In this document: positions 26,523 to 55,463 of the stretch, piece after piece
Layout of the letters: the number at the start of each line of letters is the position of its first letter
How positions within the stretch are numbered: position 1 is the stretch's first letter
From: Lingula anatina
Taxonomy: Eukaryota > Animalia > Brachiopoda
Direction of reading: 5' to 3'
DNA length: 64,000 nt
Assembly (NCBI GenBank): GCA_051362555.1
Contig: CM120643.1
Location: 8,928,001-8,992,000 of the forward strand
Notes under the pieces: model-generated
The model's database searches: none
What the model saw: only the letters and a program-made list of their open reading frames with translations
Told to the model about the DNA's origin: nothing
Translations under genes and position numbers: made by a program

Positions 26523-26603
26523 AACTTCAAAATCTCCAGGATGCAGCTGATGAACTTCTGATGCTGGAAGATGAAGAATCCATACCATATCCTTTCACAA
26601 ACT
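26523..26603 (+). pseudogene. 81-bp near-exact duplicate of PFDN4 exon 3 plus its U12 donor
   Basis: Matches 25183-25263 with one mismatch seen. Confidence 0.9.
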
Positions 26604-26605
26604 AA

Positions 26606-32654: not shown

Positions 32655-35600
32655 CAAAAAGCTAGTACGCCTATTTCTTGTTTCTAAGGAAAACGGTCAT
32701 TTTGAAAATGAAATTGCTGCATTCTGATGAAAATTGATCTGTGTATTAATGTTACTCATAATGATGAAATTTTAAAACTTTTCAATTTCTACACTATAAA
32801 TGACAGCGTACCCGTAATTGCTGTTTATTGAAATGATTTCAAAAGACTTATTTCATTTTATTTATTTATTTATTTGTTCAATTATTATTTGCAAAATAAA
32901 AAGCCATAGAAATCAGTTGATGATAAAGACTTTTGTTTATGTCTTTATGAGGTATTGGGACATAATTATATACTTGGTCATGAAATAAGTATGAAATTAG
33001 TATGTATATAAATCCTCCAGCCTCGTTATAAATTCAATTGAGCTCATAACAACCGCAAGTTATGCGAATGACAAGAATGACAAAGGATGTCATTAAACTA
33101 ATGATCAGAAAGGAATAACTTTTTCATCATCATTATTATTATTATTATTATTATGAATCGCGAATACAATTAATGCTAATTGCCAGCGATATAACTTGAA
33201 ATCAAAGCAGCCAATGGGACTTTTTAGATTACGCACAAGCTAATTTCAAATGTTTACAAAACTTTTTGACTATACTGAAATAGAAGTGTGAGATATGAGA
33301 CAACTTTTTGTTCAACTTAAGGCGCCTTATTTCACTTGATCATTCTAAATAATAAAATTACGTAGTTTTACATTCATTGTTATTGTATAAATTTCGATCA
33401 TTTGTTTAAACTTTGCACAAGATGAAATGCAAGCAAACCCATTTTATTTGCTAGTTCGAGTGGCTCGAAATGATTCATTTGAAAAAAATTAAGAATAATC
33501 CGATAGTCTGGCTGATTAAACAACGCGTGCGCGAACGCACGCTTACACGCACATACAGCAGCAGCACTTCTCAAAAGGACATAAGGATACGGCTGGTTAA
33601 CCACTACTACTCACGCTTCTTTCTTTTGTGTGTGTGTGAGTGCGTGTGCATGCGTGAGCGCGCATGAGTGTGTGTGTGTGTGTGTGTGTTTAGCTTATTT
33701 AACCCTGGGTACGGACATATATTCCCTCTACCAGGATTGCAGATAATGATGTACACTTTTCTCTGACTCTCACAGTGCAGAGAGTAACCATCTATTTACC
33801 CAGAGACATATCTGTGAATATGTAGTGAAAAAAATCAATCTGTGGCCCTGGTAGAAGGTAGGGTACAGATACCCTTTTGTACTCTATATAAATAGCATCG
33901 CGCTATACTGTTAGCTGATAACCCGGTTTTTGCTAGGTAAACATTGCCCCCGTTACACAACGTTACTGCTGCTTACGTGGCACTTGTTATCAATATCATA
34001 GAAGTAGCTTCTATGTCAATATGTTGCAGGATAAAGTAAAAAAAAAGTTTGCATGACTTTGCACAATAGGTATCGGCGCTTAAAACACCGGTTTTATTGA
34101 ACTTGATACAAATCCACATAACAAAAGTAAAACAGAAGAAAGATGTAAAATATGAAAATGCAGGTCTGTAAAAAAAATGGCACATTTATTTTGTATTCAA
34201 GTATCAAAATTAACATCATTGAGTAATATATGGATGGGCTTCAGCTGACGTTTAAAAAATGAAACAAAGATTAAATACAAAAATGAAAAAGATCTTGAAT
34301 CGTGCTGAATATATTTTAACGGACCCCTTACCTTGTTTGTATTACTCACTCACCATTGAATGTCACACTATTTATAGACGAGAACAAAAGGGCATCGCAG
34401 TACCGGCACATGATTCTGAGTAAGGCACGTCGAATAGACTTATTCAGGATTATTAGAGAATAACGCATTGTCACATGAGCGTGAACTTAGCTTACTTTGT
34501 GAAATACTTCCTGGTACTTGCAATTCATTAAATGGGGTAATTGTTGGGTAATTAATAAAGTTTGCATTGTTCTCAAATGAATTGCGTTTGCGTTTGGTTG
34601 CACATGGAATTTTCTGCTAGCCTCTAAAATAATAATAATAATAATAAAAGATAACCAAAATTATAAATATATTATATATAATTATAATATTTATGTAATT
34701 TTCCCCAACTAATCGGTGTAAAATATCCAGTTTAATCCAAATCTATAATCCAAATCGGTCCAATTGGATCAGTTTGACCTTGGTTAGCTGCAAGGAATTG
34801 TGGGAGCCTCCTCAATGTTAGTAAACAGAGCGCTTCCCTGGACGCGAACGGGCATACGTGGTGCGCGGCACGTCCAACTACGCTACGTTCTGGCGGACGC
34901 AATCTAGGTCTTGGCCGTTAAGGCGACCTTCCCCTTGTCTCAAGCGACGTCACCCTTGAACGCTGTCTTCTACCTGAAAGGGAAAACGTTGTGAAAAACT
35001 GATCGGCAGATCGGTATGTATACAGGCGTACCCTAGCTGTCATTAACGTTTTTTATACTCCCTCTTACGTCTATCATTTAACATAAAAATCATCGATCGA
35101 TATGAGTGGATGTAAAATTATTCTTAATCACACGTCATATGGATCAATATGATATTCATATACTACCCTGAAATGAATACAGATGAAGTTTCACACCGTT
35201 CGACCTTTTCGTTTCGTTTTTCATTTATGCCGACATCGATTTTTTTTCGTATTCGCTACAGCACCAGATTAACCTGAAATGGTCTGACACAATCCGTAAC
35301 TGCGCACATTCCCTTACAGATCAGAAAAGAAAATTAAATCAAGATAAGGGCAAATGCTGTATATGAGAGGGATATTGGGAGTACACAGCTTGATCTTTGT
35401 CTTTAAATGTATCGAAATTGGTAATAAATGCATTCAAATTGGTCGAATTTTATCGACAGATGCTAACCTATTTCTCTCAGCAGCGTCCTCGTTTCACCTC
35501 AAACATTATGATAAGCAGTGCGCACTGATAAACATAATTAATTTAGAAAATACGATTTTTCGGTCAGTCTGGGGACGTGGTATTTGATATGCAAATGAAA

Positions 35601-38600
35601 AACATTTAATCAATTGTTATTAGAAAGAAGAGCGCGATAAAGTGGCGTGGCGAGGAACAGATAAAGGTGTGATTAGAGGAACTGTTTGACCTTAAAAGAG
35701 TCGTTCCCGTCACCTTCAAGCTCTGCTCACGTGACGTGGAATATATTAACCCACTATTTTGACCTAGTCTGTCCTGATTCCCGATTGTGAGAACGCGTTA
35801 AATGTAAACAGCACAAACCTGCCTAAACAATGTTTTTATCGATCGATTGCCAATTCCCATCAATTTTGTTAAGAAAGAAGTCACCAGAATTGCATAACTG
35901 AAAACATGCATCAATATTTAGAATTTGTTATTATTTTGGGGTAATTGTTGCAAACCGCAAAGGTAATAAAATAAGCTATTTATCTTCTTAAAAAGTAATT
36001 TGAGGTTATTTACGACGCGACGTTTCACCCGCGCAATGTCACATTGTCGGTGCAATATCCGCATCAGCCCTGTCAGCTGAGGTCGTATTTGTTTACATTG
36101 ATTTTCATCCAACTATAGCGTAGACGTCACTCATTCTCCCAGCTAAGTTCGTGCATTTTTTTTGAAAGCGGCTAGATGCGTAAGATCGCGTTTGCTGTTA
36201 AGATGAAACTTATTAACATTTTCAGAAGAATTTAACATTGATTCACCTGCATGAATTCCTGAATGGCTTGAAAATTCAAAAGGCAACAATGCGAAAATAA
36301 ATCTTCAAGTGACGCGTTAATAATGCAGTTCCGCATTATGCGCCGATGTAAGACTTTTCCCAGCAACGATTAACATCATTAACACCTACAATTATGCTAC
36401 CCGGTAAAATACTTTTCAAATGCTAGAAATTATTCATTCCAAGAAAATGAGGACGTTTTGGTCGTCACGTTTGACTTTTTTGTCATTAACTCGGTGAACA
36501 TTGAGTGATTTGGCTAAGTCGAAGAAAAGAGAACGCTACTGCTACCCTAGACCACGTTAATACTTACAACAGTCCTACTGCTGCATGCTGCGTTGTCTTT
36601 CTGGCCAAAGCAAAAGAAATGTGGATATATACATGCAGATAACTTTAATCTAACCAAAAATAACACTAGACGGAATGTGATTGGAGGAATAAGAATTTCA
36701 GGGCGGGATTTATGATAATTATCCCTTGTTTGCCAGGTTTTTCTCTGGACTACGTGATTTTTGTAGCGTAGTCTATGGCGGATCTAGTAAATGTGCCTGG
36801 ATGATCATTTGAATAGCTGGCTCTTGCTTCTATATTCCCCTGTGTTGCGTTCACATAGAGATTGAACTGTATTCGCAATGTTATTTTTATAACTAAGAAA
36901 TCTTCAAAATTTTCCTTGCGATTGTAAACATAAATGTTTTATAAGCGATGGATTTATCTAGACTACCAGGAAAGGAATTTTGATGCGCGCTTGACAGTTA
37001 ATTGATGCTTTCTTTTCTTGGTTAGGTTATTTTAGATATTACACATTAAAAAAAAAAACATCGATAAAAATGAAATTGCCTCACCTTTGTAGTTTGAAGT
37101 AAATATCAATTTTTAAACAGACTTAAAATGTAGAAAATTATACTTAGTTCAAAGCTAAGCAGATTTGCATTTTTGCTCTTGATTCAAGTAAGAAAACATT
37201 CTGTGAAGACGCACGAAAAGACTGCGAGAGGCGACACTCCAAACTGGACACCGAATCTCTCTACGATCTCTCGCACAGCGTCAGAAACTCAAACGCACCT
37301 CATCGTTTTTGGTTTCTATCCGATTTACTCTTTTCGTTACCAAGAAGACAGATGATACATTTTTGGCGGTATAAATATAGGTATGACAGCATCAGTTAGA
37401 ACAATTAAAGATTAATAAGCCTACCAGCTGCCACCATCACGAGTTTCACTATAAGGAAATGGAGACCCATAACACAGTCAAGTTTCAGTCAAGTTTTGGG
37501 TTATTGGAAATAGTGTTAGTAGGCCAATAATAAACGTAGAGAAGCAGGGGTTGGGGGTGGTGATCCTCTCTTTCATATTTATAATCTTATTTTGTAAATA
37601 AAAAACGAATAAATATGAATAAGAATTGCCAACCCAGCCCACCACCTTATGAGAAAATAAACACTGAGACCAACAGAATAATGTTTCTTGTGTTGTATTT
37701 TATGCTACAACTTTGTGTGGGTGGGAGAAGAGGGTTGTGAAAGGGCGGCTGAACCTTTCAGCTTCTCCCCTTTTCTTGATCTCTTTGGTCTGTTAAAGAA
37801 ATGAGCTCCGAAATACAAGGATATAGGGCCTATGGACTTATGCCAATATGAATATTTCAGCAGTTCACGCATTCACTAGCTAGTGTAACCATATGTGCTT
37901 ATCCTTGCGGTTCCAAGTTTTGATTCAGAACACGCATCAGTTAAAATGATAATAGGCAACTAATCATAAGTAGGTATGAGAGTACTAAAAGGGAAACGTA
38001 TCTTTTTAATTCAATGTGGTTAGCCAAGTTGTCGGTCAATCCAGAGAACACAGTGACGTAAACTGACATCACGTGACTGCGATCTACCCTTGGGAAGCTC
38101 AATAACCTTCATCGCGGTAGTCGTTCTTTTTGTGAACGGGGCCAGGCATGGTGCGCTTGGGAGGTTTCCGATGGTCGTCAAGTGGCGTAAGTAATATCGT
38201 TTAAAATGTAACGCATCTGGGTTTAAGGTCGATTTCGTACCAAATAAAATGGCATGAAGTTTGTGATGATTTTGAAGGAGAGGTTATCCCGTGGAAATAG
38301 GAAAATACACATTTTATGGTGCTAAACTCTTTTACAGATAACCCATTTTCACAGTGTTAGACTTGCTTTGGGTTGGAATAGTTACGTAGTAAAAGAGCAG
38401 AGCACACTGCGTGACTTTTAGCATGCAAATGTACCCAGTGTAGGACTATTGCTTTTGAACAGGATCACTGAGAGACCCACGCCACCGATAATTGGCTTCG
38501 ATTCATTACCCCGTATATATATCTCCACCTTTACTTTAATCTACGCATTTGTAATAGAAAATATGCTTTTGTTTGCTTAATATATGACCTCCTAGTGTAA

Positions 38601-39148
38601 CTGTAAAATATCAATCTGTTCAATGATGCTGGAAACCCCTCTTCTTGGAACTGGCTATTTTGATCAATCCGATAATGGGGACTTAACCCGAGTTGACCGC
38701 AGCAGATGTTAGCGGCACGTAGATACCGATAGTAAGCGTATGACGCGTAGGTTGTACTTTTAGCAGTGAATGTTGATAAGCTAGTTTTGCCGCTGGTATA
38801 TAAAGGTGTATATATAAGGAACAAGATAGGTGGTGATTGCGTAACGTTTTATTTTACACGCTTTTAATTTAGGTTAACTTGGGCTGTCATTAGTAATTCG
38901 ACACCTTTTCTTGGGCTGATTTGTCGAATTAACGTTAAAGGAAAATGTGTACTTTCTGTTTCAGTTTCCAAGCGATATAATACTAGGCACCTTTTTTACC
39001 TTTCAATAGTTGTTAAACCTATACCTGATGAAGTGATTGGAAATGATAACAGCAATGCATAAGACTTCAGGTGCCCTCAACCATAAGGAAAAGCGTCAAA
39101 ATGTAATTTATTGGAAATTTTGATGACATCAAATGTATGTTTCTACAC

Positions 39149-39207
<59 letters not shown>

Positions 39208-40061
39208 AATAAATAAATAAAAATAAAAAATATAAAAAATCGATGGATAAACAAACAGATATATTAAAGTAATTATATACTGATAAAAGTACTGGGCCTA
39301 GAACTGTTACATAAACTAACGCATAATATAACATTGTACGTCTGTTAATTGTCACTATTTCTACATTTAAAAAGAACATTTTACGGATGCTAGTATGCGT
39401 AGGCCAGAGGTAAAACAGCCAATTTATTTATTATTTTTTAAAAGACTGTAATACTGATCGGCTTATCTTGAATAACCTTGAACCCCAGCGCTCGTGTGAC
39501 CGACCTCATATTGAAATTTTGAAGCGTGTTTCCTTTGAGTCGACTTAGCGACTGGCAGTGCTTAGTCAGTGTTTGAAGGTAGTGTATTTTGTTTCAGTTG
39601 CTGTGACTCATATAATTACTGAGTCATCAATCCCTATTATCGTGTTACGTGACATGTTTGTTGTAAGTCTTTAAATGCTTAACTTTAATAAGCAGGCAGT
39701 AAGCAACATATGCCTTGCAGTTACTGAGCATCGTCTCTTTTTTTTTATGATGCAATTTTAATGAATGAAAATCGGGACATCTCCATAAACAGTCAGAACT
39801 TTTTCAAACTTGAACTAGCCTTGCAATGTTGACAAAATTGTACTTTCTGTGCATTTTTTAAAATCAGATTTGAATCTTTCTGTTCTCTAATGTCGCTGAC
39901 ATAGGTGTATAAATTCATTTTTAAGGAATTTCATCAACTATGTTGGAGACATTTAATAATTCACAATGAAGCCCTTTGAGTAATGTCACGTAATGTCTTT
40001 GTATGTAGATCATTTGCAATGTTATTCTACACTATCCCTTTTTTTCTATTGCGTAGTGTAA

Positions 40062-41050
40062 GGCCACACTTTTTTATTTTTATGGATGACATCCTCTGGG
40101 TACCCCAAAATCGGTGCGAGAGGGCGAAAAAAAAAAAAAAACGGTCCAAAAAAAAAAAAAAAATACTGCTTAAGTAAAGGAATGCTGTCAGTACACAGCT
40201 GGAAACACAAATTTTACCACAGAAACACGTATCAAACTAACAATATGTCTTTATCCATGCTCTCAAAATATTAAAGCATTGTGAATACTTCGTAGAAATG
40301 TAATAAAAAAGTCATGAATAGATATACTTTTTATTACAAAATTTATTAAGGTTATTTCATGCATTTTGTTGGTATAGCAATCAATAAAACAAATATCAAA
40401 CAAACAGTGTGTCTTTATTCGTATTCTCAGAATATTAAAGCATTTTGAACACTTCACAGAAATGTTTAAAAAAATGGTGCAAAGATATGCTTAATACTAC
40501 CAAATCTATTAAAGGTCATTTCGGACGATGCCATTTTGTCTACTTCGACTCACACGGCCAAACTGTCAGGTGGCCTGTCCGACCTTCAGCCCACCAAATA
40601 CCTCGACGCCCTTGTCGACCCTTTTTTCTCTACAGAAAACCTGGTAGCCTATGTGCTGCTTTGTACAGAATGTCACTGAAATTTTTCGGGCGATAATCGC
40701 TGGCGGCCGCCAGCCTTTCGCACAATTGTAAAAAGGTGATATCTCCATGCCCAATATCAATGGCATACCAATCCAAAACGACGGCACCCGTTCTCTTTAT
40801 GACTTTAATTGTCGTGTAATTTGAAAGTTATCCTAGAGATGAATTTGACGGCAAAGCGGCCACATTTCCACGTGGCGATAATACGCATGCGCAGAAAGCT
40901 TATTTCCTGGCAAATTCAATAACGACGTTTGCGCCAACCGACTTCGTTGGGGGCTGGGGGGGGGGGGATTTTTTTTTTTTTTTTTTCGGAGAACGGGCGA
41001 AAATCGGTGCGCGCGCAGGATGTCATCCATAAAATTAAAAAAGTGTGGCC
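40062..41050. mobile_element. Non-autonomous PIF/Harbinger-type element, copy 2 (inverted relative to 26606-27705)
   Basis: Same TIRs and TAA flanks. The interior is the reverse complement of copy 1 with indels. Confidence 0.9.
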
Positions 41051-41504
41051 TAAAGTCTAAAGAGGTCAATGAAGTCTTGTTTGTTAATCAGAATTAAGAA
41101 GTTATGTGTAAGAATCCTTGAGTGAACATTAAATGATTGCATCTGGTTATTGTCATCTGAGTTGGATTTCCTCATGGCAATTTAAATGTAAAGATTTTTG
41201 ACCACTAATGTGGAAAGCTGTATTAACGCATTATCCACCCAAAAAGTTTACAACCGTGTCTGCATTACGAGTTTGTTCTTAATTTTTATTCTTTACCATA
41301 TGCAGCGGTTCCAGACATACACTGTTTTGGCAACAGCATTATTTACTTTTGTATAATTAACGTAATACTTTGAAATTGTACTTTCAAATGTTCAATGTTT
41401 CTGAAAACATTTGAACAATGACCTTTGCTTGGTGTTATAAGGCTGCATTAATTAAGTTTACCATGCATGGTGCCAAACTAAACATTTTTCTGCTTCATCC
41501 ACAG

Positions 41505-44500
41505 GTTCTAGATATGTGGCAGTTGCAAAGACCGGTGTTTTTTTCGAAACCTTTTCTTCGACATTGACAGCAACAAATACTTCCAAGGGCCGCATAGCTT
41601 CAGAAGGTGATTATAGTAAGTACAGCCATGTCCCATGCAAATTGAGTCTGCCACAATAATAACATGTGGGGTCTGACAAGAATGGAAAACTGCAAATTAA
41701 AAAGTTTGCTCAGCAGGTTGCATCTCAAAACATATCTGATTTATGGGTCTTTAAATAACTGATGAGAAAGAAAAAACAAGGGGATGGTTCGATAATGATA
41801 TTATGTTATGCTTGCCAAATAAATCTTTGTCCAGAAAGTCAAAATTTATCATCAAAATTATTCCTTCTAATTCATCATTACTCTCAAATTTAGACCTAAT
41901 TTAGATTTAGCATTTATAATGCTGCTCATGATTGAATTGGATTCTGGTAAATTTCACCTTTACGGGTAAAAATTACAAGTTAATTGCTTGAAAATTAGTT
42001 TATTGATGATAATTTTCTTGTGGAAAGACTACTGAAATTTTTATTGACAAATTACCACTAACATTTTTTCTGCTTTATAATGGTATAATGCATATTGTAT
42101 GATTGTAATTGAAAGTCAATTTAATTAAGGCAAGTCTGCTCTGTTTTCAACCTTACAATTTCAGGTTTTTATAATTTTATGTGGGGGTAAGAATTTTTTT
42201 TTTCTGATTTTCACATATTTGGAAAGCTAACTTCTTTGGAATGAAAATGTCAGGTTGTTTGGTTCCTAATCTGGTTATATGTATTTATGTAGAAAAACAA
42301 GGTTAGTGTGTGTCTTTTATCAGTCTTTTATTGAAAAAAATTGATAAGGAAAAAAGAAAAATATTTTGTAGGTGATTATATAGCACCAGAATTTACTTTT
42401 ATTTCTATGTCATGAAAACATGTAGATAGACCTTTTGACTTTTCTTAGAAGTTGTTTATGTATGCATTGGTCAATTTTGCTTAGCCTCTTTTTCAGGATT
42501 GCTGATGTCAATATTTCTTTTCTAATAGTACTGAATATGTAAATAAACATGGAAATGAGGCTAAGTGAGGCTCACTTAGCTTACATGAATAGAAAAAGAT
42601 AGGTCTATAAAGCAAAACAGTATAAAATGTAGATGTACTATGTTTACATACCTGTGGTCAGAATGCCAGCCTCTGGAACAGGAGGATGTGAGTTTGTCCC
42701 TTTCTGGGGACATGCAAGTTCTTCATAAGTGGTGCGTACTGTCTACATACTTGACACTCACCATTTGGGGGTTGAGATATTGGTAAAATGTGTGATCTAG
42801 CGGTGAAAGATACTGTTTGTGTGCTGGAGTTCAGTACTTCATGCAGCAGCTGGGCTGTTATATATATATTACATAATATATATATGTTATATGCAGATGT
42901 ACATATACATATATTACATATTTTATCTTCTCTATAGGGAGTGAAAAACATCTACACTCAGTCTGAATAGAGGGCTGAAAATAATCCCAGACATATCAGG
43001 GGCGGATGGAGGCCGTCTGGGTTGACAAAGACAGTCAGATTTTAAGGTTTACATTGATGGGGTTCTAATTTTTCTTTTGGAAGATGGTCGAAAATGGAGA
43101 ATGGATCAACAATGTTAATTTGGAAGACTGTTCAAAAATACCTCTGGATCCGCCCCTGCATACTGTCATCTTATTCTAATGTAATGATACTAATCCACAA
43201 TGAGTCACAGTGAGGTGTGGTGTATGAGAACCAGGTTTTTTTCTTTTTACTTCAATCTCATATGGTGTATTAATTAAGCCAAGGGTAGGATTGCGGTGGC
43301 ATTATATCATCTAAGCGTGTCTCATTTTGTATGGGAAAGGCAGGCCTGTGGTTTAAATATAGAACCTGTCTGTGGTTCATCTGGTGTTGACATTTATATG
43401 GGTAGCAAGGTTGTTAATTTAACCTACCTTTTATATGCAGGTACTCTTGATATCTTGCATGAATGCTTGTGATAGGAAAAATGAATAGTCTTACATTTTG
43501 TGTCATGACTCATTTCATTTGATATATGTTTATCTTTTTCAGGCCATTCTTTTTTTACTAAAAGAAAGAAGTAAAGGAAGTTGCTTCCCAAAAGAAGAAG
43601 ACGGACATTAATAAGGTAATTTTATTTATGTTAAGTTTATGAGGTACATGGAGCCATTTTATGCCTTGAAGGCCTATGCATATTAATTTGGAATTGTCAG
43701 CCTTTAAATGTATATACATGGGCTGCATACCTTGTATTAAAAATCTGCATTTATACTAATTTTTATAACATTTAAGGGATAACAACTCTTCATCTGAGAT
43801 TTCAAATTAAAAAATAAATACAATGTAAACAACACATAGAAATATGATAAATTCCATTTTACCAGTAAAATGGCGGTAATCACCAATGTTCTGAAATCAG
43901 TGCTTGCAATAAAAAAAAACACACTTAAAAAAAATCCACTGACTTTGAATGCAGGAACGGATTCATTAACCAATAGGAAGTATGGGAAAATTGTCCTTCA
44001 CACCAGGAAAATCTGGTTTATGGCGTGAAATAGAGAGTTGTCATCCTTTTAAGTTTGGCACCGAAATTAATCAAATTGGAGGGAATTGTAGATGATGTGT
44101 GGTTTTGGCACCAGTTTATTTAAAAACATAGCCATGGTATATGTACTTGGAGGAATAAACACACTTTCAGTGAGTCATCATATTGAGCACACATAGACAG
44201 TCATGAAAAAACATATAATGATACATTTCCATATCTTCCATAATTAAGTAAAGGACCTTAGGGATGAAATTGACTATAATGGGCTTATGTGCATGATCAA
44301 GGGGATTGGATTCCCCAATTTGACCAAATATTGGAAAATATTTGATATTATAAGATAAATAAATGATGTGCATGAAGATGTATGGTTACTCATCCTCTTA
44401 AATTATGGAAAGTAGGCTATGAAATGCACACCCACCAGTGCCATCAAATATACCTGTGATTCTGGCAACTTGTGATCTCAGCAAGATGTAAAAAAAAAAA

Positions 44501-45724
44501 AAAAAAAGCATGAAGAATTCATGCAAGCTTTTGGAATTAAGAGATATCTAACTAAACTTGACAAAAAGAAATGACATTTTTTAAAGAGCAAAGATTGTGC
44601 TTATTTAGTATACAACCATACTTGATTCAGTAAGGAAAGTGTTGATCTGGTAGATGACCGATGACTGAACTTTTCAAGTACATACACTGTAGCTCAATGC
44701 AGGTGTCCTGGTATGACATCTGAAATGAATGTTTAAATATGTAATAATGCCCTGTGATGTGAAAATTAACCGAGAAATATTAAGTCACACATGCCAAAGC
44801 ACTCTTTGTAAAAGTCGAGGTTAAGCTTGACAAAATTGTTTCAGTTGTTTAATGGGGCTGATTGTCTTTCAACAAGGTTGCTAGGCAAATTTAATCTTAA
44901 ATATGGCGTTTAAATGGGTATAGCAGCTAAAATTATTTTTCTTTTATTTGTTCATATTTTTAGGAGAGGGAAGCGAGAAATCCTCAGTGCGAGTAAATTT
45001 TAGCATTAAAAAAAAAAAAAAAAGCAAGATTTTTTCAGGGTCCCTAACCAGCACCACATTTTACAACCACTGAAAACAATGACCAGTAGTGCCTTCCATT
45101 CTCCTTAACCGAACTGTCTGACCTTAAAAACATTTTGCGACACAATCCACATTAACACTGTTTGCATGGTTAACCTTATGTGACAGTGAAGGTTACTTAT
45201 GGCTTGAAAACTCATCCCTGGGATGTAAATTCAGTAGTAAAAATCTAACATTTTTTCTTTCTTTTCAGATTGCTAACTGCAGAGCACCTGAGGCGTTTGT
45301 ATACAACCCAATCACTGGAAACACCCTTAACCTTAGAGTGTGGTTGATCAACACGGATCAAATTTCCTAGCAAGGTAACTATATCCTCTAGTAATTCTTA
45401 ACAGTATCTGAATTCTGCTCAATTCAATGCAACAAAATAACTTAATTTTGATTTCTTTTAATTTTTATCTTAGCAGCATAAAAACTAAGATGAATGAATT
45501 AAGTAATTTAATTAGTAGAGCAATTTAATTTAATTAGAATGTTAATGAAGTAACAGTTACTGTTTTGCTTATGTCCCTCAACCATAAAAATTGTATAATT
45601 TAACCTATGTATAAATTTATTCTAATTTTTTTTAAAATTAATATATGTTGAATATGTGGTCCTTTACTAAAATGTACCTTGGAAATTCCAAATTTCAGAC
45701 ATCAATATACGGGAAAAAGATGGC

Positions 45725-45772
<48 letters not shown>

Positions 45773-45864
45773 GTTTCAAGGCACATTTTGGCCAACAGTC
45801 ATATTTCAAATTTTAATTTGTTAAATGCAATGAAAATTTTCATTTCAGTTAAGCATTTTCCACC
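41505..45864 (+). other. Predicted spliced 5'UTR exons of the PNO gene
   Basis: Candidate AG/GT-bounded exons at 41505-41615, 43543-43615 and 45269-45374, with a final acceptor TTTTCATTTCAG ending at 45848. An in-frame TAA at 45850 precedes the CCACCATG start. Confidence 0.55.
42997..43158. mobile_element. MITE family A copy
   Basis: CAGGGGCGGAT...ATCCGCCCCTG with flanks CATAT and CATAC. Confidence 0.85.
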
Positions 45865-48800
45865 ATGTGGAAAGCAGTGACCAGTAAAGCGGTCCAGGCA
45901 CCACTAAGGTGCCGTGCGAGGGCCATCGATAAAGTCCTTTTACGTCAACCACACAGAACATGGCGACTGGCAACAGTAGAAGCAGTTCGTCCCATGGCTT
46001 CAAAGCCCGAGAAGAGCTCCGTGCGCACAATGCAAACTGTTTCACCCATGCCAAACTTGGTGGAGAACAATACCCGTGAACCTGTACCGAAGCCCAAAGC
46101 AGAGGCGGCCTATGCTGCCATGGATGGAAATGAAGCTGCCGCTTACATTGCATATGCCTTGAGTGACATTTCATTCATTTACCCAATCAGCCCTGCCACC
46201 TCAATGGGGGATCACATGGACAAGTGGTCCGCTGAGTCCAAGAAGAATATCTTCAACAGTGTTGTCGATGTGAACATGATGCAGTCGGAGGCTGGTGCAG
46301 CAGGTTCTCTTCATGGGGCTGTGGCAGGTGGTTGTTTGGCCAGCACATTTACAGCTTCCCAGGGGTTGCTTCTTATGGTTCCCAACATGTATCTCCTGGC
46401 TGGAGAGCTCATGCCTTGTGTGTTCCATGTTTCCGCTAGGACAGTGTCTAAGCATGCCCTTTCCATCTTCAACGATCACTCTGATGTCATGCATTGCAAA
46501 TCGACAGGCTTTGCCATGCTGGCATCGAGCTCTGTACAGGAGGTCATGGACATGGCTTTGGTGTCCCATGTCGCCTCATTAAAGTCAAGGATACCTTTTC
46601 TGCACTTCTTTGATGGATACAGAACTTCAGCAGAGGTGTCTAAAATTCAGCCTATACCACATGCTGACATTGCCAAAATTTTTCCCTATGAAGCACAGCA
46701 GAAACATCTGAAAGAATTTGCTCTCAATCCAAATGAGCCTAAGATCAGGGGTACAGGTCAGAGACCTGATATCTTTTTCCAGTCCACGGTGGCTGCCAAC
46801 AAGTATTATTTAGCTTGCCCAGGTATTGTACAGGAAACCATGGATGAGGTGTATGCTCTGACTGGACGCAAGTATGACCTGTTTGATTACCATGGATCCC
46901 CAACTGCAGACCGTGTGGCAGTAATATTAGGCTCAGCATCAAAGACACTCGAAGAAACAGTAGACTTCATGAACAGAAATGGTTCCAATGTTGGTGTGGT
47001 GGGGGTGCATCTTTATCGTCCTTTCTCAGATGAACACCTGTTGAATGCTATTCCCAAAACAGCCAGAAAGATTGCTGTCCTTGACAGGACCAGGGAAGAC
47101 GGGGCTTTAGCCCAGCCACTTTTCATGGATGTAAATGTAGCTTTCAGTAATGCCAATAGGCAAGCGTTGATCACTGGCGCCACATATGGGCTGGCCTCAA
47201 AGGAGTTCACACCAGAAATGGCTGTAGCTGTGTTTGATAACCTTAATGCAGAAAACCCCAAGATGCAGTATGTGATAGGTATAGAAGATGATGTGACGCA
47301 CACTTCCCTGCCCTATGGGGAACCCATTACCACTGTGCCCCCGGGAACCAAGCAGTGCATGTTCTGGGGTCTTGGATCGGATGGCACGGTTGGAGCCAAC
47401 AAAGAAGCCATCAAAACTATTGGCTTAAACACAAATCTGAAGACCCAGGGCCACTTTGTGTTTGACTCCCACAAAGCAGATGGTATCACAGTATCTCATG
47501 TGAGATTTGGCCCTGAGGAAATCAAGTCGGAGTACATCATTCAGTCTGATGCAGATTATGTCTCTTGCCATCACCCTTCCTATGTCGAGAAGTTCCATCA
47601 GATGTTAGATCCACTGAGCGAAGGTGGCACTTTTGTGCTGAATTCCCCATGGACAACAATGGAGCAGATGGAAGAAAACTTACCAGCTATATTCAAACAG
47701 AAGCTTGCAAAGAAGAAGGCCAAGTTTTACAACATTTCAGCAAACAAATTGGCACAGAGTCTTGGACTTGGAAAACGCATCAACATGATAATGCAGACAG
47801 CATTCTATGAGCTTTCTGGAGTCCTTGAAGTGGATGAGGCTATTGCTTTATTGAAGAAGTCCATTGAGAAAGCTTATGGCCACAAAGGTCCTAAAGTAGT
47901 GGAAAGCAATAAGAGTGCTGTGGATGCAGCAAGGCAGAGCCTGAAGAGAATTGACTATCCAGCATCGTGGGCCCAGGCCACTGAAGGAGGCAAGAGAGGA
48001 GAACATACAAAGGCTACAGAGTTTGTGGAAAACATCATGAACCCAGTGCTGGCTCTGGAAGGTGACAAACTCCCAGTCAGTGCCTTTGAGCCAGGTGGCC
48101 ATATGCCCATTGGTACAACTCAGTATGAGAAGAGAGGTATAGCCCCCCAGATCCCAGTGTGGAAGCCAGATGCCTGCACCCAGTGCAACTACTGTGCCAT
48201 AGTATGCCCGCATGCTGTTGTGCGCCCTTTCCTGCTTGACAAGCAGGAGACCAAGAATATCCCTCCCGGGTTTGAAGCCAGACGTGCCAAAGGAGGTTCT
48301 GAAGTGTCTGGTTACCATTACAGTATTCAAATCTCCCCCATGGATTGCACAGGCTGTGAGGTCTGCGTGGAGTCCTGTCCAGATGATGCTCTCTACATGG
48401 CACCTTTTGATGAAGTCCATGAGAAGTACCGTCCACACTGGGAGTATGCTGTCAGTCTTCCTGAAAAGGGAGAGATTGGAGACAAGTTCTCAGTCAAGGG
48501 CAGCCAGTTCCAGAAACCACTTATGGAGTTCTCTGGGGCATGTGCTGGCTGTGGTGAGACTCCCTATGTGAAGTTGGCCACACAGCTGTTTGGTGACCGT
48601 ATGGTGATTGCCAACTCCTCTGGCTGTTCATCTGTGTGGGGAGGCACTGCCACCACCATTCCGTTCACCACCAATAAGGATGGTCGTGGTCCTGCCTGGG
48701 GAAGGTCTTTATTTGAGGACACAGCAGAGTATGGCTTTGGCATGAAACTTGCAACCAAGAAACGACGTCGTGATTTGAGAAACAAAATGCTCGTAGCCAT

Positions 48801-51402
48801 GGAAACATGTAAGATTAGTGATGAGCTACGTGGGTTATTTCAAAAGTGGATCCAAAACATGGATAAAAATGACCAAGTGGAGATCCTTGCACCTATGATG
48901 GAAGCTTTGCTGCTGAAAGAGATGGAAAACCAGCCAGACCTGGTCAAGGTATATAATGACAGAAACCTGTTTAGAACACAGAGTCACTGGCTTATTGGTG
49001 GAGATGGATGGGCTTATGACATCGGTTATGGTGGAGTTGACCATGTGCTGTCCAAGGGAGAGAACATCAACATCCTTGTTCTTGATACAGAGATGTACTC
49101 GAACACAGGAGGCCAGGTCTCCAAAGCCACACAGTTGTCCACTGTCACCAAATTTGCTGCCTCTGGTAAGAGACAGAATAAGAAAGATCTTGGAATGAAT
49201 GCAATGCTCTATGAAAATGTCTATGTAGCATCAGTCGCTATGGGGGCAAGCTACAACCAATGTGTGCAAGCCTTTAAAGAAGCGGAATCCTTTGATGGCA
49301 CATCACTCATCATTGCCTACTCTCCATGTATCGACTGGGGTATTGAGATGAAGAATATGATGCATGAACAGAAGGAAGCAGTTGATTCTGGATACTGGCC
49401 CCTGTACCGATACGATCCACGCCGTGCTGAAAAAGGAGCCATACCTTTCCAGTTAGACTCAAAGAAAATCAAGGGAGATTTTGAGAAGTATCTACATGGG
49501 CAGAACCGTTTTGATCAGTTGTTCAGGAAGGATAAGTCCCTTGCTGAAGGTCTGCACGGTTCCTTTGAACATAACACATTGCATCGTCATGAGAAGTTCC
49601 AGAAGATGGCCATGGATGAAGTGGAATACCTGGAATACTTGAAGGCCTTGCATGGGGAGGAGTTATCTACAGAAAAATCCATTGTCCTGTACGGCTCTGA
49701 AACTGGAAATGCTGAGGCATTGGCAGGGGTGTTTGCCTCCGAACTTTTGAGAAGAGGTATCAGAGCAAAGTGTTTGGCCATGGATGACTTTGAGGTGGAT
49801 GACCTACCAAAGCATTCAACTGTCTATTGTGTGGTGGCAACATGTGGACAGGGAGAGTTACCAGGAAACTGCAGGGACTTCTGGGAGCAGCTTTCAGACA
49901 AGGACCTCCCTAGCGACTACCTGGAGAACACAAGATTTGCTGTGTTTGGACTTGGTGATACTTCTTACGTGTTCTACAACGAAGCCGCTAAGAAGTTTAA
50001 TAAACGCCTGGAGGAGCTGGGTGGAAAGAGGATCTTGAATCTTGGCCTGGGAGATGACAAGGATGAAGAGAAATATGAGACTGCGTGGAATGAATGGTGT
50101 CCCAACCTGTGGAATGAACTCGGCACACCACCACCACCACAAGAACTGCTGCCGCCTACATATAAAGTTAACATAGATACCACTGGAGACATTTCTGCCC
50201 CTACAGAAGCCCTCACCCCAGCAGGCTCTAAGATAATACCATTGACCAAAAACGTCCTCTTGACACCTCCGGACTATGACCGTGACATCCGTCATTATGA
50301 GTTTGACCTGAAAGGATCGGGGATGACATACAGCATTGGTGAATGCCTAGGCATCTATCCACACAATAATCCAGAGGAGGTGAATCAGTTTTTAGGCGAT
50401 TGTGGCATCAACCCTGAGCATACAGTTACACTGGAGGACACTAGTGGCCGCAAAGAACCCCTTCCTCCTGTCATCTCAGCTGGACGCCTCTTTGGGGAGG
50501 TACTGGATATTTTTGGCAGACCCAGCAGAAGGTTCTATGAGACTATGAGCATAGCAGCATCAGATCCAAGTGAAAAGAAGGAACTAGAGTACATCTTGAG
50601 TAAAGACGGTGCCGACAAGATGAAAGAGCTGGTGAAGGAGACAGTGACCTACGCTGATCTGATGAAGAAGTATCCATCAGCAAAAATGCCATTGGATTAC
50701 ATGGTTGACCATGTCCCCCGCATTAAGCCACGCCTGTACTCCATAGCCTCGGCCTCCGAGATGCACGGAGACATGCTGCACTTGTGTATAGTGAAGGACG
50801 ACTGGAACACCCCCTCTGGAAAGTACAGAGAAGGCACGTGTACCAGGTACCTACAACACTTGAGCAGAGGTGACAAAATAGACCGTGTGGCTGGGAAAAT
50901 CAATGCAGCTGGTATCAATATCCCAGACAACCATAGGCCGCCATTTGTAATGGTTGGTCTTGGCACAGGCCTTGCACCTTTCCGTGCTTTCATCGAAGAG
51001 CGCGAGGTGTCGAGACAGAGAGGTGAAGACGTAGGCGAGATGGCATTGTTCTTCGGGGCCCGTTACAAAAGAACGGATTACACGTATGGAGATGAGCTAG
51101 AGGAGTACCACTCCAATGGGAAGGGGGTTCTCAGTGTCTTGTCCACAGCCTTTTCTAGAGACCAAGCTCACAAGATTTATGTGCAGAACCGTATCTCTGA
51201 ACACCCTGAGGTCATCTATGACTATCTGGTGAAGAAGAAGGGCTATTTCTACCTGTGCGGTCCTGCAGGTAACGTCCCTCCACAGGTGCGCAAGGCAGTT
51301 GTGGAGGCCTTTGTCAAGTGTGGAGGCCACACGCCAGAGGAAGCTGATAAAATGGTGACAGACATGCAGATTGAAGGAAGATACAACATTGAGGCTTGGT
51401 AA
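45865..51402 (+). CDS. PNO: Pyruvate:NADP+ oxidoreductase (PFO plus CPR-like fusion) with a probable mitochondrial presequence; intronless, 1845 aa
   Basis: PFO motifs: MDGNEAAA, YPISP, MQSEAGAAG, FTASQGLLLM, GLGSDGTVGANK, GTTQYEKRGIA, two 4Fe-4S motifs (CTQCNYCAIVCP, CTGCEVCVESCP), FSGACAGCGE, and the TPP motif GGDGWAYDIG...YSNTGGQ. These are followed by a flavodoxin domain (YGSETGNAE, FGLGD), FAD motifs (PRLYSIAS, GTCTRYL), NADP motifs (GLGTGLAPFR, FFGAR, AFSR, KIYVQ, YLCG) and a terminal Trp. Confidence 0.96.
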   Translation: MWKAVTSKAVQAPLRCRARAIDKVLLRQPHRTWRLATVEAVRPMASKPEKSSVRTMQTVSPMPNLVENNTREPVPKPKAEAAYAAMDGNEAAAYIAYALSDISFIYPISPATSMGDHMDKWSAESKKNIFNSVVDVNMMQSEAGAAGSLHGAVAGGCLASTFTASQGLLLMVPNMYLLAGELMPCVFHVSARTVSKHALSIFNDHSDVMHCKSTGFAMLASSSVQEVMDMALVSHVASLKSRIPFLHFFDGYRTSAEVSKIQPIPHADIAKIFPYEAQQKHLKEFALNPNEPKIRGTGQRPDIFFQSTVAANKYYLACPGIVQETMDEVYALTGRKYDLFDYHGSPTADRVAVILGSASKTLEETVDFMNRNGSNVGVVGVHLYRPFSDEHLLNAIPKTARKIAVLDRTREDGALAQPLFMDVNVAFSNANRQALITGATYGLASKEFTPEMAVAVFDNLNAENPKMQYVIGIEDDVTHTSLPYGEPITTVPPGTKQCMFWGLGSDGTVGANKEAIKTIGLNTNLKTQGHFVFDSHKADGITVSHVRFGPEEIKSEYIIQSDADYVSCHHPSYVEKFHQMLDPLSEGGTFVLNSPWTTMEQMEENLPAIFKQKLAKKKAKFYNISANKLAQSLGLGKRINMIMQTAFYELSGVLEVDEAIALLKKSIEKAYGHKGPKVVESNKSAVDAARQSLKRIDYPASWAQATEGGKRGEHTKATEFVENIMNPVLALEGDKLPVSAFEPGGHMPIGTTQYEKRGIAPQIPVWKPDACTQCNYCAIVCPHAVVRPFLLDKQETKNIPPGFEARRAKGGSEVSGYHYSIQISPMDCTGCEVCVESCPDDALYMAPFDEVHEKYRPHWEYAVSLPEKGEIGDKFSVKGSQFQKPLMEFSGACAGCGETPYVKLATQLFGDRMVIANSSGCSSVWGGTATTIPFTTNKDGRGPAWGRSLFEDTAEYGFGMKLATKKRRRDLRNKMLVAMETCKISDELRGLFQKWIQNMDKNDQVEILAPMMEALLLKEMENQPDLVKVYNDRNLFRTQSHWLIGGDGWAYDIGYGGVDHVLSKGENINILVLDTEMYSNTGGQVSKATQLSTVTKFAASGKRQNKKDLGMNAMLYENVYVASVAMGASYNQCVQAFKEAESFDGTSLIIAYSPCIDWGIEMKNMMHEQKEAVDSGYWPLYRYDPRRAEKGAIPFQLDSKKIKGDFEKYLHGQNRFDQLFRKDKSLAEGLHGSFEHNTLHRHEKFQKMAMDEVEYLEYLKALHGEELSTEKSIVLYGSETGNAEALAGVFASELLRRGIRAKCLAMDDFEVDDLPKHSTVYCVVATCGQGELPGNCRDFWEQLSDKDLPSDYLENTRFAVFGLGDTSYVFYNEAAKKFNKRLEELGGKRILNLGLGDDKDEEKYETAWNEWCPNLWNELGTPPPPQELLPPTYKVNIDTTGDISAPTEALTPAGSKIIPLTKNVLLTPPDYDRDIRHYEFDLKGSGMTYSIGECLGIYPHNNPEEVNQFLGDCGINPEHTVTLEDTSGRKEPLPPVISAGRLFGEVLDIFGRPSRRFYETMSIAASDPSEKKELEYILSKDGADKMKELVKETVTYADLMKKYPSAKMPLDYMVDHVPRIKPRLYSIASASEMHGDMLHLCIVKDDWNTPSGKYREGTCTRYLQHLSRGDKIDRVAGKINAAGINIPDNHRPPFVMVGLGTGLAPFRAFIEEREVSRQRGEDVGEMALFFGARYKRTDYTYGDELEEYHSNGKGVLSVLSTAFSRDQAHKIYVQNRISEHPEVIYDYLVKKKGYFYLCGPAGNVPPQVRKAVVEAFVKCGGHTPEEADKMVTDMQIEGRYNIEAW

Positions 51403-53935
51403 ATTGTTTGAGCAGAGACATTCCCCCCTTGGTTGAAACTGCGTTGTCTTTGGAGTCCATAGCAATGGGAGAGGAATACCACACAAATATACTAAGATTT
51501 TCAGTGAAAGACCAGTTGCATTATCTATTATCACAAGCTTTGTAGATGTCCAAGTTGATGCCAAAGCTTTTTGCCCTTTAAGTATTCCACATAGTAAATC
51601 AGTTTATTGTGATCTTAAACCCATTTAGTATAATAATTCAGTATAATAATTGATATTGAATATATAAGATTTCTGTAAAACTGAAGGCAACCAATTATCC
51701 CAGGAATATTGAATCATTAAAGTGCCTTAAATATCTTGACAAGGGCAGGTGAATAAAGGCATAGAATTGGTCAGAATCATTAATTTAAAAAGTTGCCAGT
51801 ATCTATTTTAATTAATAGGTTGTCAGAAGGACAAGTGATTCATTGTACTGTAGTGGAAATATAAAATTGTCTGTGAAGGGATGCCATTACCTGACACTTA
51901 CACAGTACAACAAAATGAGGGATGAAAAACCTGTGCACGAATATATCAGTAAATTGTTGTTACTTAAAAATAACTGTGAAATCAGGCACTGTTGTATAGA
52001 CGAGAACAACAACTGTTGAACAGCCAACTTGACTCTCAGCACAAGTTCGTCAAAACAGGTAAATTGTACATAAGGAATTTTGGCACCATAAATGTACAGT
52101 TGTTAACAGATTGTTTCTTAATACTTCTATTGCTTTTCCGTTAAGATTTTTCTTGTTAGTTTAGTATCGTTTTAGTGCACAGTCTGCAGAAGGCTTTGGT
52201 AAGTTTATTAAAGTATAAATAATATATAATATGAAGTATTCACTGCGTATTCCTCCGTGCTATGTAGGGTTTGTTAGTTTTGGGGAGAAAATACCACATG
52301 GTTTTGGCTGATGAAGTGGTCTGTTAAAATTCCATGTAATCTGTGAATACATCTTTTCTTTTAAGAGTACTGTTACTTTGAGCACGTGCTGTATTGTAAA
52401 TATCAGTGTTCATCCATTACTATTTTTGTGCAGGGGGTAGGGATGCAACAAATATTGTTTTTTTTTTTTTCATTTTTTTATGTATAATTGCTTTTTATGT
52501 AATGGTATACACACAGAACTTTGTTGATTCTTCAGCTGCATATGTTAAGAGCTTTTCTCAGAAACACTGTTCCCTCGATACCTTTGTTTTTGGTGTCGAG
52601 GTTTTTCTTTCGTAAATTGATCTCTTCAGACTTCTAAACCAAATGGATACCAATAGATTCTAAAAACTTCTTGTTTGTTATTAAGAATATGATCTATATA
52701 GCTATATAATTAACCTGTCTGTGGGTTTGTCAAAGCAGTACAATACTTGGTTGAAAAATGATATAGCGAAAAAAATTACATTTAGCTTTTAAAAAAGTAT
52801 TAATGAGTGTCAAAATGTAATTGAATTGTGATATCTTTGATGCAGCTTAGCATGACCAATTTAAAACCGGTTACCAGGACTGCCCTTTTATTTTTATTTG
52901 ATTTTTTTTTCTGGCCATCAAATATGTTTATTGTGATCAATCAAATATTTTAATTTTGATGCCACTCAGTTTGTTAAGATTCAGAAAGTGTTATGGTTAT
53001 GGTTATGAATTAAGTAATATTAATGGAGTATATTATTAATGAAGCTATAATATATTTGATTATAATTATTTATTTGATGAGTGATTATCTTTGGCATAGC
53101 ATAATATACCAGACATGGAATAGATGACCCTACACAGTCGTAAAGTTAATGGGACTAGACGTTGTAATATCTATGTGAGAAGTCGAGGTGGTATAAAGGA
53201 CATATTTGGAAATAACCACGATACAAGTCAAGGTGCTAGAAAGGACAGTGGTATCCACAATACAAGGACAGTTTGAAAAAGGGGTTGCATTCAGTGATAT
53301 TGGCGTGAGAACTTGCTTATGAATGCCCCAGACTTCCTCTGAATTTGCCTTTGATTTCTATACGTGTGCTTTCTCAGGCCTTGGCTCCAGCAAGTACTCC
53401 ATTGAAAACTATCTTGTGATTTAAAAAAGAAAATCTCTGAAGATTTGAGACAACAAAAAACTGACAGTTTCTTTGATTTATTAAAAAGTCTGCAAACAAA
53501 ACAGTTTTCTGGCATTGAGAATTTTTTCAAACTGAAAAACCAAGTATGTGTTCATCTTATATGATGTAAACATATTTTGCAACAGGTGTTTGCCAAGAAA
53601 TTGTATTTATTTGAGATCAAGTTTTTCCTGTTGGGCACCAATGCTAAATTGATGTTAATTTATTCAAACAAATCTCCCAACAAACTTTTTTTCAAAAAAG
53701 TCATTGTATAATCTCAGTGTTAGCTATTTATTTGATTTGCTGCCCTGCTATATAATTTTATGAATGTGTGAATAATTGTAACTGGTCTTAAAAATCTTAA
53801 ATTAATATTATTCTTACTAGGATGATTAAGATACTCCAGAATGAGTCTGACACCATGTAATATGTCTAGTTAGGTGGTATAACTGGAAATAAATTAGTTT
53901 GTTGAGTTCTTTAGTGCTGTTATTTGTTCACATAT

Positions 53936-54113
53936 CTAGGGTAGCGCTAGCTAACACTCGCCAATTTGGCCAAATGCTAAAACTGACTGAAATTGGCTAA
54001 ACAAAGTAGGGTTGATTTGACTTATTTTAGTCAAATTTAAACCACTGGGACAAAATAGCAATGAAAAAGTAGTAATTTGTCTAAACGAAAAAAAATGGCT
54101 AGCGCCACCCCAG
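53936..54113. mobile_element. 178-bp MITE with a 5-bp TSD
   Basis: Ends read CTAGGGTAGCGCTAGC and GCTAGCGCCACCCCAG, with CATAT on both sides. Confidence 0.75.
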
Positions 54114-55463
54114 CATATGCTGACTCCATCCCATGAATTGCTACTGGATTATGTACCGGGTAGATGAAATATTCTTCCCATAATGTTTTCCGAATTTGAA
54201 TGTTAATGCTCATTTTAATGAGAAAAAAATGTTGAAAAATGTTGTACTCCTTTAATGTTACATATGGGACACAGCATAAGATTTTAAACATGACTGAATA
54301 CACAAAGTTGAAACCATTTCTTGTTAAACTTTGAGGACAATCACAAGCTAGAAAAAAAAAAAAAACTAAACAAGATACACTGCAGTGTAAATGCCATGAA
54401 TTAATTGATGTCAATGAAAATAATCTTATTTTTCACATGACAAAGCTTGATTTATAAGATTGTTACAGTTTGGCAAGTGTCAAGAAAGGAGGACCAAAGG
54501 TTGGTTGGGAGCAGTTTATCCCAGGAAAATACATTGATTTAATTTTTCAGGAAAACTATCCTTATATTACCTTGTAAATTTAAAGAGCACGTACACTATA
54601 TATACATTCCATAGTAATTGTTCTAATTATGGGCAAGAAAAGGCACTCTGATGGTCCATTAGGTAACCTTCATGTTAAATAAAGGTATTAAAGGAACTAA
54701 TTAACCCATCCCAGCTTTATTTGCAAAGTTGAATTTTTGGTGGGAATAGACAGAAAAAAATATTATTTTCCTATGCGTTCACTTTATTGGGTTCGATATT
54801 TTTTTCCATTTCTAATCAAATAATAATTTTTAAAAATACCAGCTTTAAAATTGACATAATTCCTGCACATTTCAAATGTAAATACCAACACCAGGCAGTT
54901 TTATTTGAGAATTTAAACAGTTTTTTTAGTTTTTTAAAAGTCTGAATTGGGAAAGGAATTAACATATACTAGTACTGTATATATATATATATATATGCAT
55001 CTTTGCAGGATATATGTAAACAAAGAATAAAAAACGAGTTTGCTTTAAGTTTATACATCCCGTGCAACGCAAAAAATTCACCCCCTCCCCATTGTTTGCT
55101 CGCAAATGCACCCGTTATACTGGACTTACGCCACGTTTTGAACAGTGATACGATAGCTAGGCGAAAATTGCATGGTCTCTAATGTTTATTTCCTCGCCAC
55201 GGTATTTACAATCAATTAGAAATATTGACGCGAAAGAAGGCCCTACGTGCTATTCTAGTGTTTTGGGGAAAATTATATTGTTATGGCAAGTTCCATTGAA
55301 ACCCTGAGGGGTTCCTAAAAGCAGAAAAAATATTTAATTTATTCCTCACCTGACAATGCATTTACTAACGGCTATTGTTATTGATTGCATTAGAGGAGCT
55401 GCTATTTTAAGCAACCCGCAATTAGGTCAAAAGCAGTGCATCACGGGACATCCTACATTCAAA

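Follow-up and report, generated by a model that had tools for sequence, protein, structure and literature searches.

A transcribed pyruvate:NADP+ oxidoreductase gene of the brachiopod Lingula anatina, with relatives in chitons and annelids

The window analysed here is a stretch of 64,000 nucleotides from the brachiopod Lingula anatina (assembly GCA_051362555.1, contig CM120643.1, positions 8,928,001 to 8,992,000), and its plus strand carries, at 45865..51402, an intact, ATG-started open reading frame (ORF) of 1845 amino acids that stays open under translation tables 11 and 1. As judged from its sequence, this ORF encodes a complete fusion of a pyruvate:ferredoxin oxidoreductase (PFO, also written PFOR) with a module of the NADPH-cytochrome P450 reductase (CPR) type, i.e. 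a pyruvate:NADP+ oxidoreductase (PNO). We think it reasonably probable that this is a genuine, transcribed Lingula PNO with predicted import into mitochondria, that it would convert pyruvate, coenzyme A (CoA) and NADP+ into acetyl-CoA, CO2 and NADPH, and that it would serve above all as a bypass of pyruvate dehydrogenase (PDH) at low oxygen.

Domain architecture, transcription and host residence of the Lingula PNO

Pfam, PDB matches and motif alignment place the PFO module, with its thiamine pyrophosphate (TPP), CoA and three [4Fe-4S] sites, at residues 85-1250 (46117..49614, plus strand, as for all PNO features below). Pfam and PDB alignment locate an FMN (flavodoxin) domain at residues 1274-1411 (49684..50097) and a FAD-binding domain at residues 1459-1662 (50239..50850), while Pfam and alignment locate an NADP-binding domain (50950..51399) with an SR..K.Y motif, YLCG and a terminal Trp. 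The Pfam families are POR_N (96-326), PFOR_II (348-451), POR (504-691), EKR, Fer4 (763-845) and TPP_enzyme_C (1040-1150) in the PFO part, and Flavodoxin_1 (1274-1411), FAD_binding_1 (1459-1662) and NAD_binding_1 (1696-1801) in the diflavin part. In the PDB, residues 85-1250 match the PFORs 6cin and 1b0p (E=0) and residues 1271-1845 match CPRs (about 1e-79). The single-chain layout of a PNO, in which FMN, FAD and NADP domains come after an entire PFO of the homodimer type, is present, and an earlier note on this DNA, which had described a complete 1845-residue fusion of this kind, is borne out by Pfam, PDB and motifs alike. The best database match is Lingula anatina XP_013418498, which is 100% identical after rounding, with at least one difference (residue 72); it is labelled uncharacterised at NCBI and carries the automatic name pyruvate dehydrogenase (NADP(+)) in UniRef.

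Over residues 85-1250 the protein is collinear with the bacterial homodimeric PFORs of Moorella (6cin) and Desulfovibrio africanus (1b0p), with which it shares the TPP site, the CoA loop and 12 cluster cysteines; whereas bacterial PFORs reduce free ferredoxin, the Lingula PNO has a fused diflavin module instead. The TPP and substrate residues Glu142, Arg192, Asn1080 and GDGW at 1046 correspond to Glu64, Arg114, Asn996 and GDGW...N of D. africanus, the pairing of Asn996 with Asn1080 being based on the YSNTGGQ motif. The 12 cysteines of the three [4Fe-4S] clusters lie in CxxCxxCxxxCP motifs at 771 and 828 and at Cys893, 896, 921 and 1155. The D. africanus enzyme has a C-terminal arm and YPITP, while in the Lingula PNO the arm is missing and the motif reads YPISP. 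Since the match to 1b0p stops at residue 1167/1231, the C-terminal domain that protects the D. africanus enzyme from oxygen, according to a passage of PMC5020499, is absent from the PNO.

With CPR the diflavin part shares the FMN, FAD and NADP domains as well as RxYSIAS, GTGxAPF, AFSRxQAHKxYVQ, YxCG and the terminal Trp; unlike CPR, the Lingula PNO has no membrane anchor and is predicted to run towards NADP+. The NADP motifs comprise Ser1764-Arg1765, K1770, Y1772, Ser1626, Cys1798, Glu1843 and Trp1845, and we presume that the SR..K.Y motif, the Ser/Cys/acidic triad and the terminal aromatic residue play the same roles as in CPR. In a tree without animal CPR, the module groups with the diflavin modules of protist PNOs (44-52% identity), and the Lingula PNO therefore did not arise as a fresh fusion to the CPR of the animal itself. 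Euglena-type PNOs (E. gracilis, Diplonema, Entosiphon and Namystynia) have the same domain order, all the motifs checked and the same Ser/Gly/Arg/Val pocket, and the Diplonema protein has a basic N-terminal extension as in Lingula. In contrast to the Euglena PNO, that of Lingula belongs to a multicellular animal, and the exon that encodes it is free of introns and follows a spliced leader for which there are two first exons.

All 20 of the full-length animal proteins aligned retain Glu142, Arg192, Leu199, Asn1080, the four proximal-cluster cysteines, Ser1626, Cys1798 and Ser1764/Arg1765, a count that sets aside gaps and a single mis-ended model. Each of the two ferredoxin motifs has its four cysteines in 28 of 28 rows, and animal-specific signature residues are confined to 1 alignment column. 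By its residues, the Lingula PNO is very probably active. The PFO module is preceded by an 85-residue extension (45865..46119), predicted from composition and amphipathicity to be a mitochondrial presequence: its first 40 residues include 9 basic and 2 acidic ones, with an amphipathic moment of 0.78. A similar basic extension is found in 14 of the 15 animal-clade proteins examined; the Owenia model, which may be truncated, has none. We predict a mitochondrial location for the Lingula PNO with considerable confidence.

To follow transcription, four RNA runs bearing the same species label (X12, X13, X15 and X18) were mapped onto 38000-57000, with 6-25% of each run read. The PNO gene is transcribed and spliced in Lingula. 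The coding sequence lies without introns in the last exon, which starts at 45849, under continuous read depth and with no internal forward splice joint. Upstream of it are leader exons 4 (45269..45374; GT..AG joint 45374>45849 with 42 reads in X15, 36 in X18 and 1 in X12), 3 (43543..43615; GT..AG joint 43615>45269 with 33 reads in X15 and 73 in X18) and 2 (41505..41615; GT..AG joint 41615>43543 with 55 reads in X15), the last of which carries the ATG of a 17-codon upstream ORF. The gene appears to have two non-coding first exons. The 3' end of exon 1b (38127..38186) is joined to exon 2 by GT..AG splicing (38186>41505; 13 reads in X15 and 6 in X18, short side up to 60 letters), and its use adds two further upstream ORFs. 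The joint of exon 1a is inferred: reads with loose ends in front of 41504, numbering 24 in X15 and 53 in X18, match the 3' end of this exon at 34983..35013, a sequence unique in the window and followed by a GT donor, and this farther exon is the more used of the two. The 3' untranslated region (UTR) of about 2.5 kb (51403..53893) is covered until the bin 53216-53849, after which depth falls, and reads of X18 end at 53875-53887, near an AATAAA at 53888. The gene thus spans about 19 kb (about 35.0-53.9 kb), not the 5.5 kb of the ORF alone. Three of the runs are stranded, and in them 98-99% of the read depth has the one orientation expected of a plus-strand transcript; depth per 1000 million letters read (an RPKM-like measure) is 90 in X15, 68 in X18, 1.3 in X12 and 1.0 in X13. 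We also observed that 103 reads of X18 swap 276 letters of the 3' UTR (53128-53405) for 26 others, a length polymorphism that is probably an insertion in the window's allele.

The leader also ties the gene to its host. Its four GT-AG joints connect the coding exon with others as far as 10.9 kb upstream, and the introns spanned are AT-rich and hold repeats recurring elsewhere in the window. The first leader intron contains a repeat element of about 1 kb (40061..41051) with an inverted copy at 26.6-27.7 kb, most of whose arms are 90-97% identical in a self-comparison of the window, and the leader-intron repeat at 43028-43158 recurs at 2147-2279 and 4008-4139. CpG is depleted at the codon junctions of the PNO, with 44 observed where 300 synonymous shuffles average 160 (minimum 139), while the GpC control gives 78 against 87; we take this depletion to reflect long-term gene-body methylation of the kind seen in invertebrate genomes. 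The GC content at third codon positions (GC3), 0.50, lies inside the 0.35-0.72 range of six neighbouring coding pieces. Among the 40 variants listed (with 623 more beyond these), 26 of the 27 within the PNO coding sequence are synonymous, a purifying pattern against which it counts that these 27 are the best supported of several hundred and do not amount to a full dN/dS. At least half of the sampled PNO words are contained in 9 sequencing runs (their label as DNA being a guess), and orthologues sit on contigs of 60 Mb (Liolophura) and 62 Mb (Owenia). We hold it as practically certain that the PNO is a real gene of the animal; the earlier note's placement of it within an animal chromosome, among repeat families shared with the rest of the window, is confirmed by leader splicing, intron repeats and CpG depletion. 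A contaminating sequence, or an assembly chimera with a parasitic or symbiotic protist (gregarine, euglenozoan or foraminiferan), as might be suspected from a coding sequence of 48% GC without introns in flanks of about 30-40%, and from the existence of mislabelled PNOs, is extremely improbable and in practice refuted by the splice joints, with the GC3, the CpG depletion and a nearest relative in a chiton (76%, protists reaching 58% at most) speaking against it as well. One such mislabelled protein is P0030, attributed to the amphipod Hirondellea gigas, which groups with rhizarian-type sequences outside the animal clade and is likely a contaminant or symbiont transcript.

Relatives, intron history and origin

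Among the 120 best matches listed, 18 full-length proteins are 67-100% identical to the Lingula PNO and the next reach at most 58%; its orthologues, 66-76% identical, come from a chiton, Owenia, two siboglinids and 15 further proteins. Trees were built from PNO sequences only, with no bacterial PFORs; they are unrooted, and their support values are SH-aLRT only. The 111-row FastTree excludes rows of less than 1500 residues, and the smaller trees are hand-picked subsets of 21-44 rows. In the former, 20 rows, including Lingula, Liolophura, Owenia and the siboglinids Lamellibrachia and Ridgeia, form an animal clade with 100% support, and the same clade receives 100% in 7 of 7 distinct trees (FastTree, IQ-TREE LG+G4 and LG+C20), also with each half of the protein alone. 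The search for animal homologues and the phylogeny that the earlier note had proposed hence yield chiton and annelid PNOs in a single animal clade. On these sequences, we conclude that the ancestor shared by brachiopods, chitons and annelids already had a PNO. The PNO of Alvinella pompejana, compared by motif and not by tree, has YPISP, SARTVSKH and the terminal RYNVEAW as in Lingula (from the supplement of PMC12403961). Full-length PNOs under a fungal, choanoflagellate, sponge, cnidarian or deuterostome name are absent from the 120 best matches listed, few of which are named, and searches for shorter homologues gave no additional named animal.

Both halves of the protein fall among protist PNOs, and protist PNOs outscore bacterial PFORs in searches. 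When prokaryote genomes were scanned with the CPR half, a scan that reaches close relatives only, none of 102 pattern matches proved to be a relative. The animal clade lies within a larger group together with Euglenozoa, Rhizaria-type sequences and a taxon-unlabelled group, with no one of these supported as its sister in every tree. The Euglenozoa, of which 7 rows (including E. mutabilis, not E. gracilis) are 53-57% identical to Lingula, are sister in the best tree of several: animals plus Euglenozoa obtain SH-aLRT values of 82, 95 and 93 in three trees, with a repeat run staying within 82-95, and no resolution in four others, and approximately unbiased (AU) tests do not reject animals plus Rhizaria-type sequences (p 0.24) or animals plus the taxon-unlabelled group (p 0.07).

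The history of introns bears on the origin of the gene. A metagenome scan gave 77 PNO loci, of which 23, 14 animal-type and 9 others, were examined for splice sites. In the animal-type loci, 13 positions are occupied by GT-AG introns, 323-2634 bp long, most commonly at codons 645 (9 loci), 1289 (7) and 1454 (6), and gene-call fragments from the siboglinid cluster and from two others are likewise broken near 1454. The other, protist loci show 14 positions, from 6 of the 9 (two gave no splice solution and one no row), with introns of 55-243 bp. None of the positions is common to both sets, the protist sampling being thin. When spliced, loci L001, L008 and L011 give translations free of stops, which group with the siboglinids inside a 19-row subclade. 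Annelid-side copies have coding introns and the Lingula PNO has none. Outside this subclade the Lingula sequence has no interruption. P0006, P0123 and P0007 were called at full length on contigs of 0.36-2.0 Mb, which suggests that they, too, lack introns. The simplest reading would be an intron-free ancestral animal PNO with gains on the annelid side, although introns may have been lost in Lingula. The L008 gene (3503-17610), an animal-clade PNO with nine coding introns, six of them in phase 0 and mostly at AG|GT...AG|G sites, makes with intron-free Lingula a clear case for studying intron gain.

We lean, if only slightly, towards a lateral origin of the animal PNO, in which an intron-free coding sequence would, with somewhat better than even likelihood, have passed from a marine protist into the ancestor of brachiopods, chitons and annelids. 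A fuller scenario can be offered tentatively: the intron-free gene of an oxygen-sensitive iron-sulfur enzyme would have passed once from a euglenozoan- or rhizarian-type marine protist to the brachiopod-mollusc-annelid ancestor, would have acquired a spliced leader and later lineage-specific introns, and would still run a PDH-independent anaerobic branch in animal mitochondria. Concerning origin only, a serious competitor, whose chances we put a little below even, is vertical inheritance from an early eukaryote with loss in most opisthokonts and animals and later loss of introns in Lingula. The unresolved sister group, with neither alternative rejected by the AU tests, leaves room for it, and the taxon-unlabelled group could hold opisthokonts. 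Furthermore, eukaryotic PNOs make one cluster in the data presented in part of PMC6993867, and a passage of PMC12403961 suggests that the gene came down from an ancestral annelid or bilaterian. Vertical inheritance is opposed by the missing fungal, choanoflagellate, sponge, cnidarian and deuterostome PNOs among the matches listed (most rows being unlabelled), by nearest named relatives that are euglenozoans and rhizarians, by the failure of any of the 13 animal intron positions to coincide with the 14 protist ones, and by the restriction of every tree-placed intron-bearing locus to one annelid-side subclade.

Two further kinds of domain arrangement were noticed among the PNO-like proteins. P0460 and P0488 (JGI) have PF02906 and PF02256, which we take to be iron-hydrogenase domains, fused to a PNO-like diflavin module. 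P0025 and P0031, diplonemid-group PNOs of about 2050 residues, have extra PF13499/PF00036 domains, presumably EF-hands, hinting at calcium control.

Proposed role in low-oxygen metabolism

Homology lends good support to a predicted route that reaches acetyl-CoA plus NADPH independently of PDH. By the chemistry of PFOR and CPR, pyruvate would be decarboxylated at TPP and the acetyl group passed to CoA, while the electrons would travel by way of the three [4Fe-4S] clusters and then FMN and FAD to NADP+, neither free ferredoxin nor a hydrogenase being needed. In a burrowing animal whose respiratory chain has stalled, high NADH would inhibit PDH; PNO could then keep acetyl-CoA flowing towards acetate and substrate-level ATP in malate dismutation, or towards lipid, with the electrons placed on NADP+. 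Operation in the reverse, CO2-fixing direction was considered and rejected on redox potentials, NADPH being too weak a donor for that reaction. We consider a mainly low-oxygen role fairly likely by analogy, because the mitochondrial PNO of Euglena is used under anaerobiosis (passages of PMC8611851 and PMC6856725) and because annelids with PNO also possess the rhodoquinone COQ2 exon (part of PMC12403961).

Several points weigh against this reading. Expression is 68-90 in two RNA runs and about 1 in two others; as the conditions of the samples are unstated, tissue or stage accounts for this spread as well as oxygen does. Motifs of the hypoxia-inducible factor (HIF) type, RCGTG, are not enriched near either first exon, their count being reached in 163 and 50 of 500 shuffles. 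In the parts of PMC8611851 that bear on the matter, Diplonema PNO is not oxygen-regulated and Euglena PNO is active in aerobic mitochondria. Finally, the pocket differs from that of D. africanus PFOR, which is lined by Arg114, Thr31, Leu121, Ala219, Ile843 and Asn996 (from PMC5020499, in part): three side chains are smaller in Lingula, namely Thr31>Ser109, Ala219>Gly298 and Ile843>Val924.

The first three of these points lead to the main rival, in which the same enzyme would chiefly supply mitochondrial NADPH and acetyl-CoA, constitutively or in particular tissues, for lipid synthesis, antioxidant or sulfide defence in normally respiring mitochondria and not for survival of anoxia. It is raised to that rank because Diplonema PNO ignores oxygen, and it would sit well with high expression in two runs without stated hypoxia, with a 60-90-fold spread between runs, with the lack of HIF-element enrichment, and with the expression of PNO by algae at ambient oxygen (a passage of PMC6732389). 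Against such a supply role, the oxygen-shielding domain is absent from the PNO, and the named carriers Lingula, Owenia and the siboglinids inhabit burrows, tubes or vents. The same holds for Alvinella, and PNO and rhodoquinone markers co-occur in annelids (PMC12403961, in part). We regard this NADPH-supply role as unlikely, at about one chance in a few, and retain the low-oxygen bypass as the preferred role.

The three changed pocket residues mean that the substrate range may be wider, and the enzyme might favour another 2-oxoacid, such as 2-oxobutyrate from threonine or methionine breakdown, or act mainly as a general electron donor. Many PFORs do take 2-oxobutyrate (a section of PMC13768988), and the D. 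africanus PFOR with its larger side chains is pyruvate-specific. Yet Ser109, Gly298 and Val924 are also present in the euglenozoan rows covering them (6-7 of 7), as well as in rhizarian sequences and one taxon-unlabelled group, and Euglena PNO oxidises pyruvate, making a different main substrate improbable.

The earlier note had called this an unrecognised branch of animal metabolism, which is too strong. The genome paper of Alvinella (PMC12403961) already records PNO, giving it a single sentence and a sequence, for Alvinella, siboglinids, further annelids and some bilaterians other than chordates; its supplement names Lingula, as far as the matches there go, only in a species table. The sections of it consulted contain no PNO tree, gene structure, expression or brachiopod copy, and intron history and a chiton copy likewise seem to be missing from them. 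Thus, the existence of animal PNO is already published and priority for it is taken, although it will surprise most specialists. No phylogeny, assay or localisation of an animal PNO, and no report of one in animals beyond the Alvinella paper, was found in print by searches that miss colon-written names and most subscription journals. A 2026 review of PFOR places the eukaryotic enzyme in protists, and the words 'animal' and 'metazoa' do not occur in the portion seen (PMC13768988), while a passage on land animals in PMC6732389 rests animal adaptations to anoxia on NADH-dependent pathways. If our reading is true, PNO would add an iron-sulfur, PDH-independent step to malate dismutation in brachiopods, chitons and annelids. 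It would also allow the old debate over vertical versus lateral origin of eukaryotic anaerobic enzymes to be put to the test in animals suitable for keeping and assay.

Neighbouring features of the window

Of the 154 ORFs submitted to Pfam, 7 exceed the curated cut-off, the PNO included and a ureidoglycolate-lyase ORF entered twice; the flanking matches are to fibrinogen-C (two pieces), thioredoxin-like pieces, prefoldin, ureidoglycolate lyase and a chromo domain. The ureidoglycolate-lyase-like gene (32008-32654, plus strand; PF04115, E 1e-9) lies 2.3 kb upstream of PNO exon 1a; it has a single coding exon and little CpG depletion (observed/expected 0.94), and is a second intron-free, microbial-looking gene beside the PNO. 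The flanking genes, described by the earlier note as ordinary spliced ones, are so only in part: the chromo gene is spliced, but the ureidoglycolate-lyase-like ORF, being single-exon, is not an ordinary spliced neighbour.

The chromo-domain gene (55464-59959, plus strand; PF00385) starts about 1.5 kb past the 3' end of the PNO and has a hydrophobic C-terminal stretch by eye; loose read ends at 55492 resemble its exon. Its first intron holds a 1.9-kb element (56198-58083) with 215-nt inverted arms that are 95% complementary. Near the prefoldin match (25703-25921), an 84-nt, coding-exon-like sequence is duplicated at 25183-25266 and 26523-26606 with 98% identity. A weak DDE transposase fragment, below the curated cut-off, lies on the minus strand at 11018-11203, and a plus-strand ORF of 299 residues (12284-13183) matches no Pfam family above cut-off.

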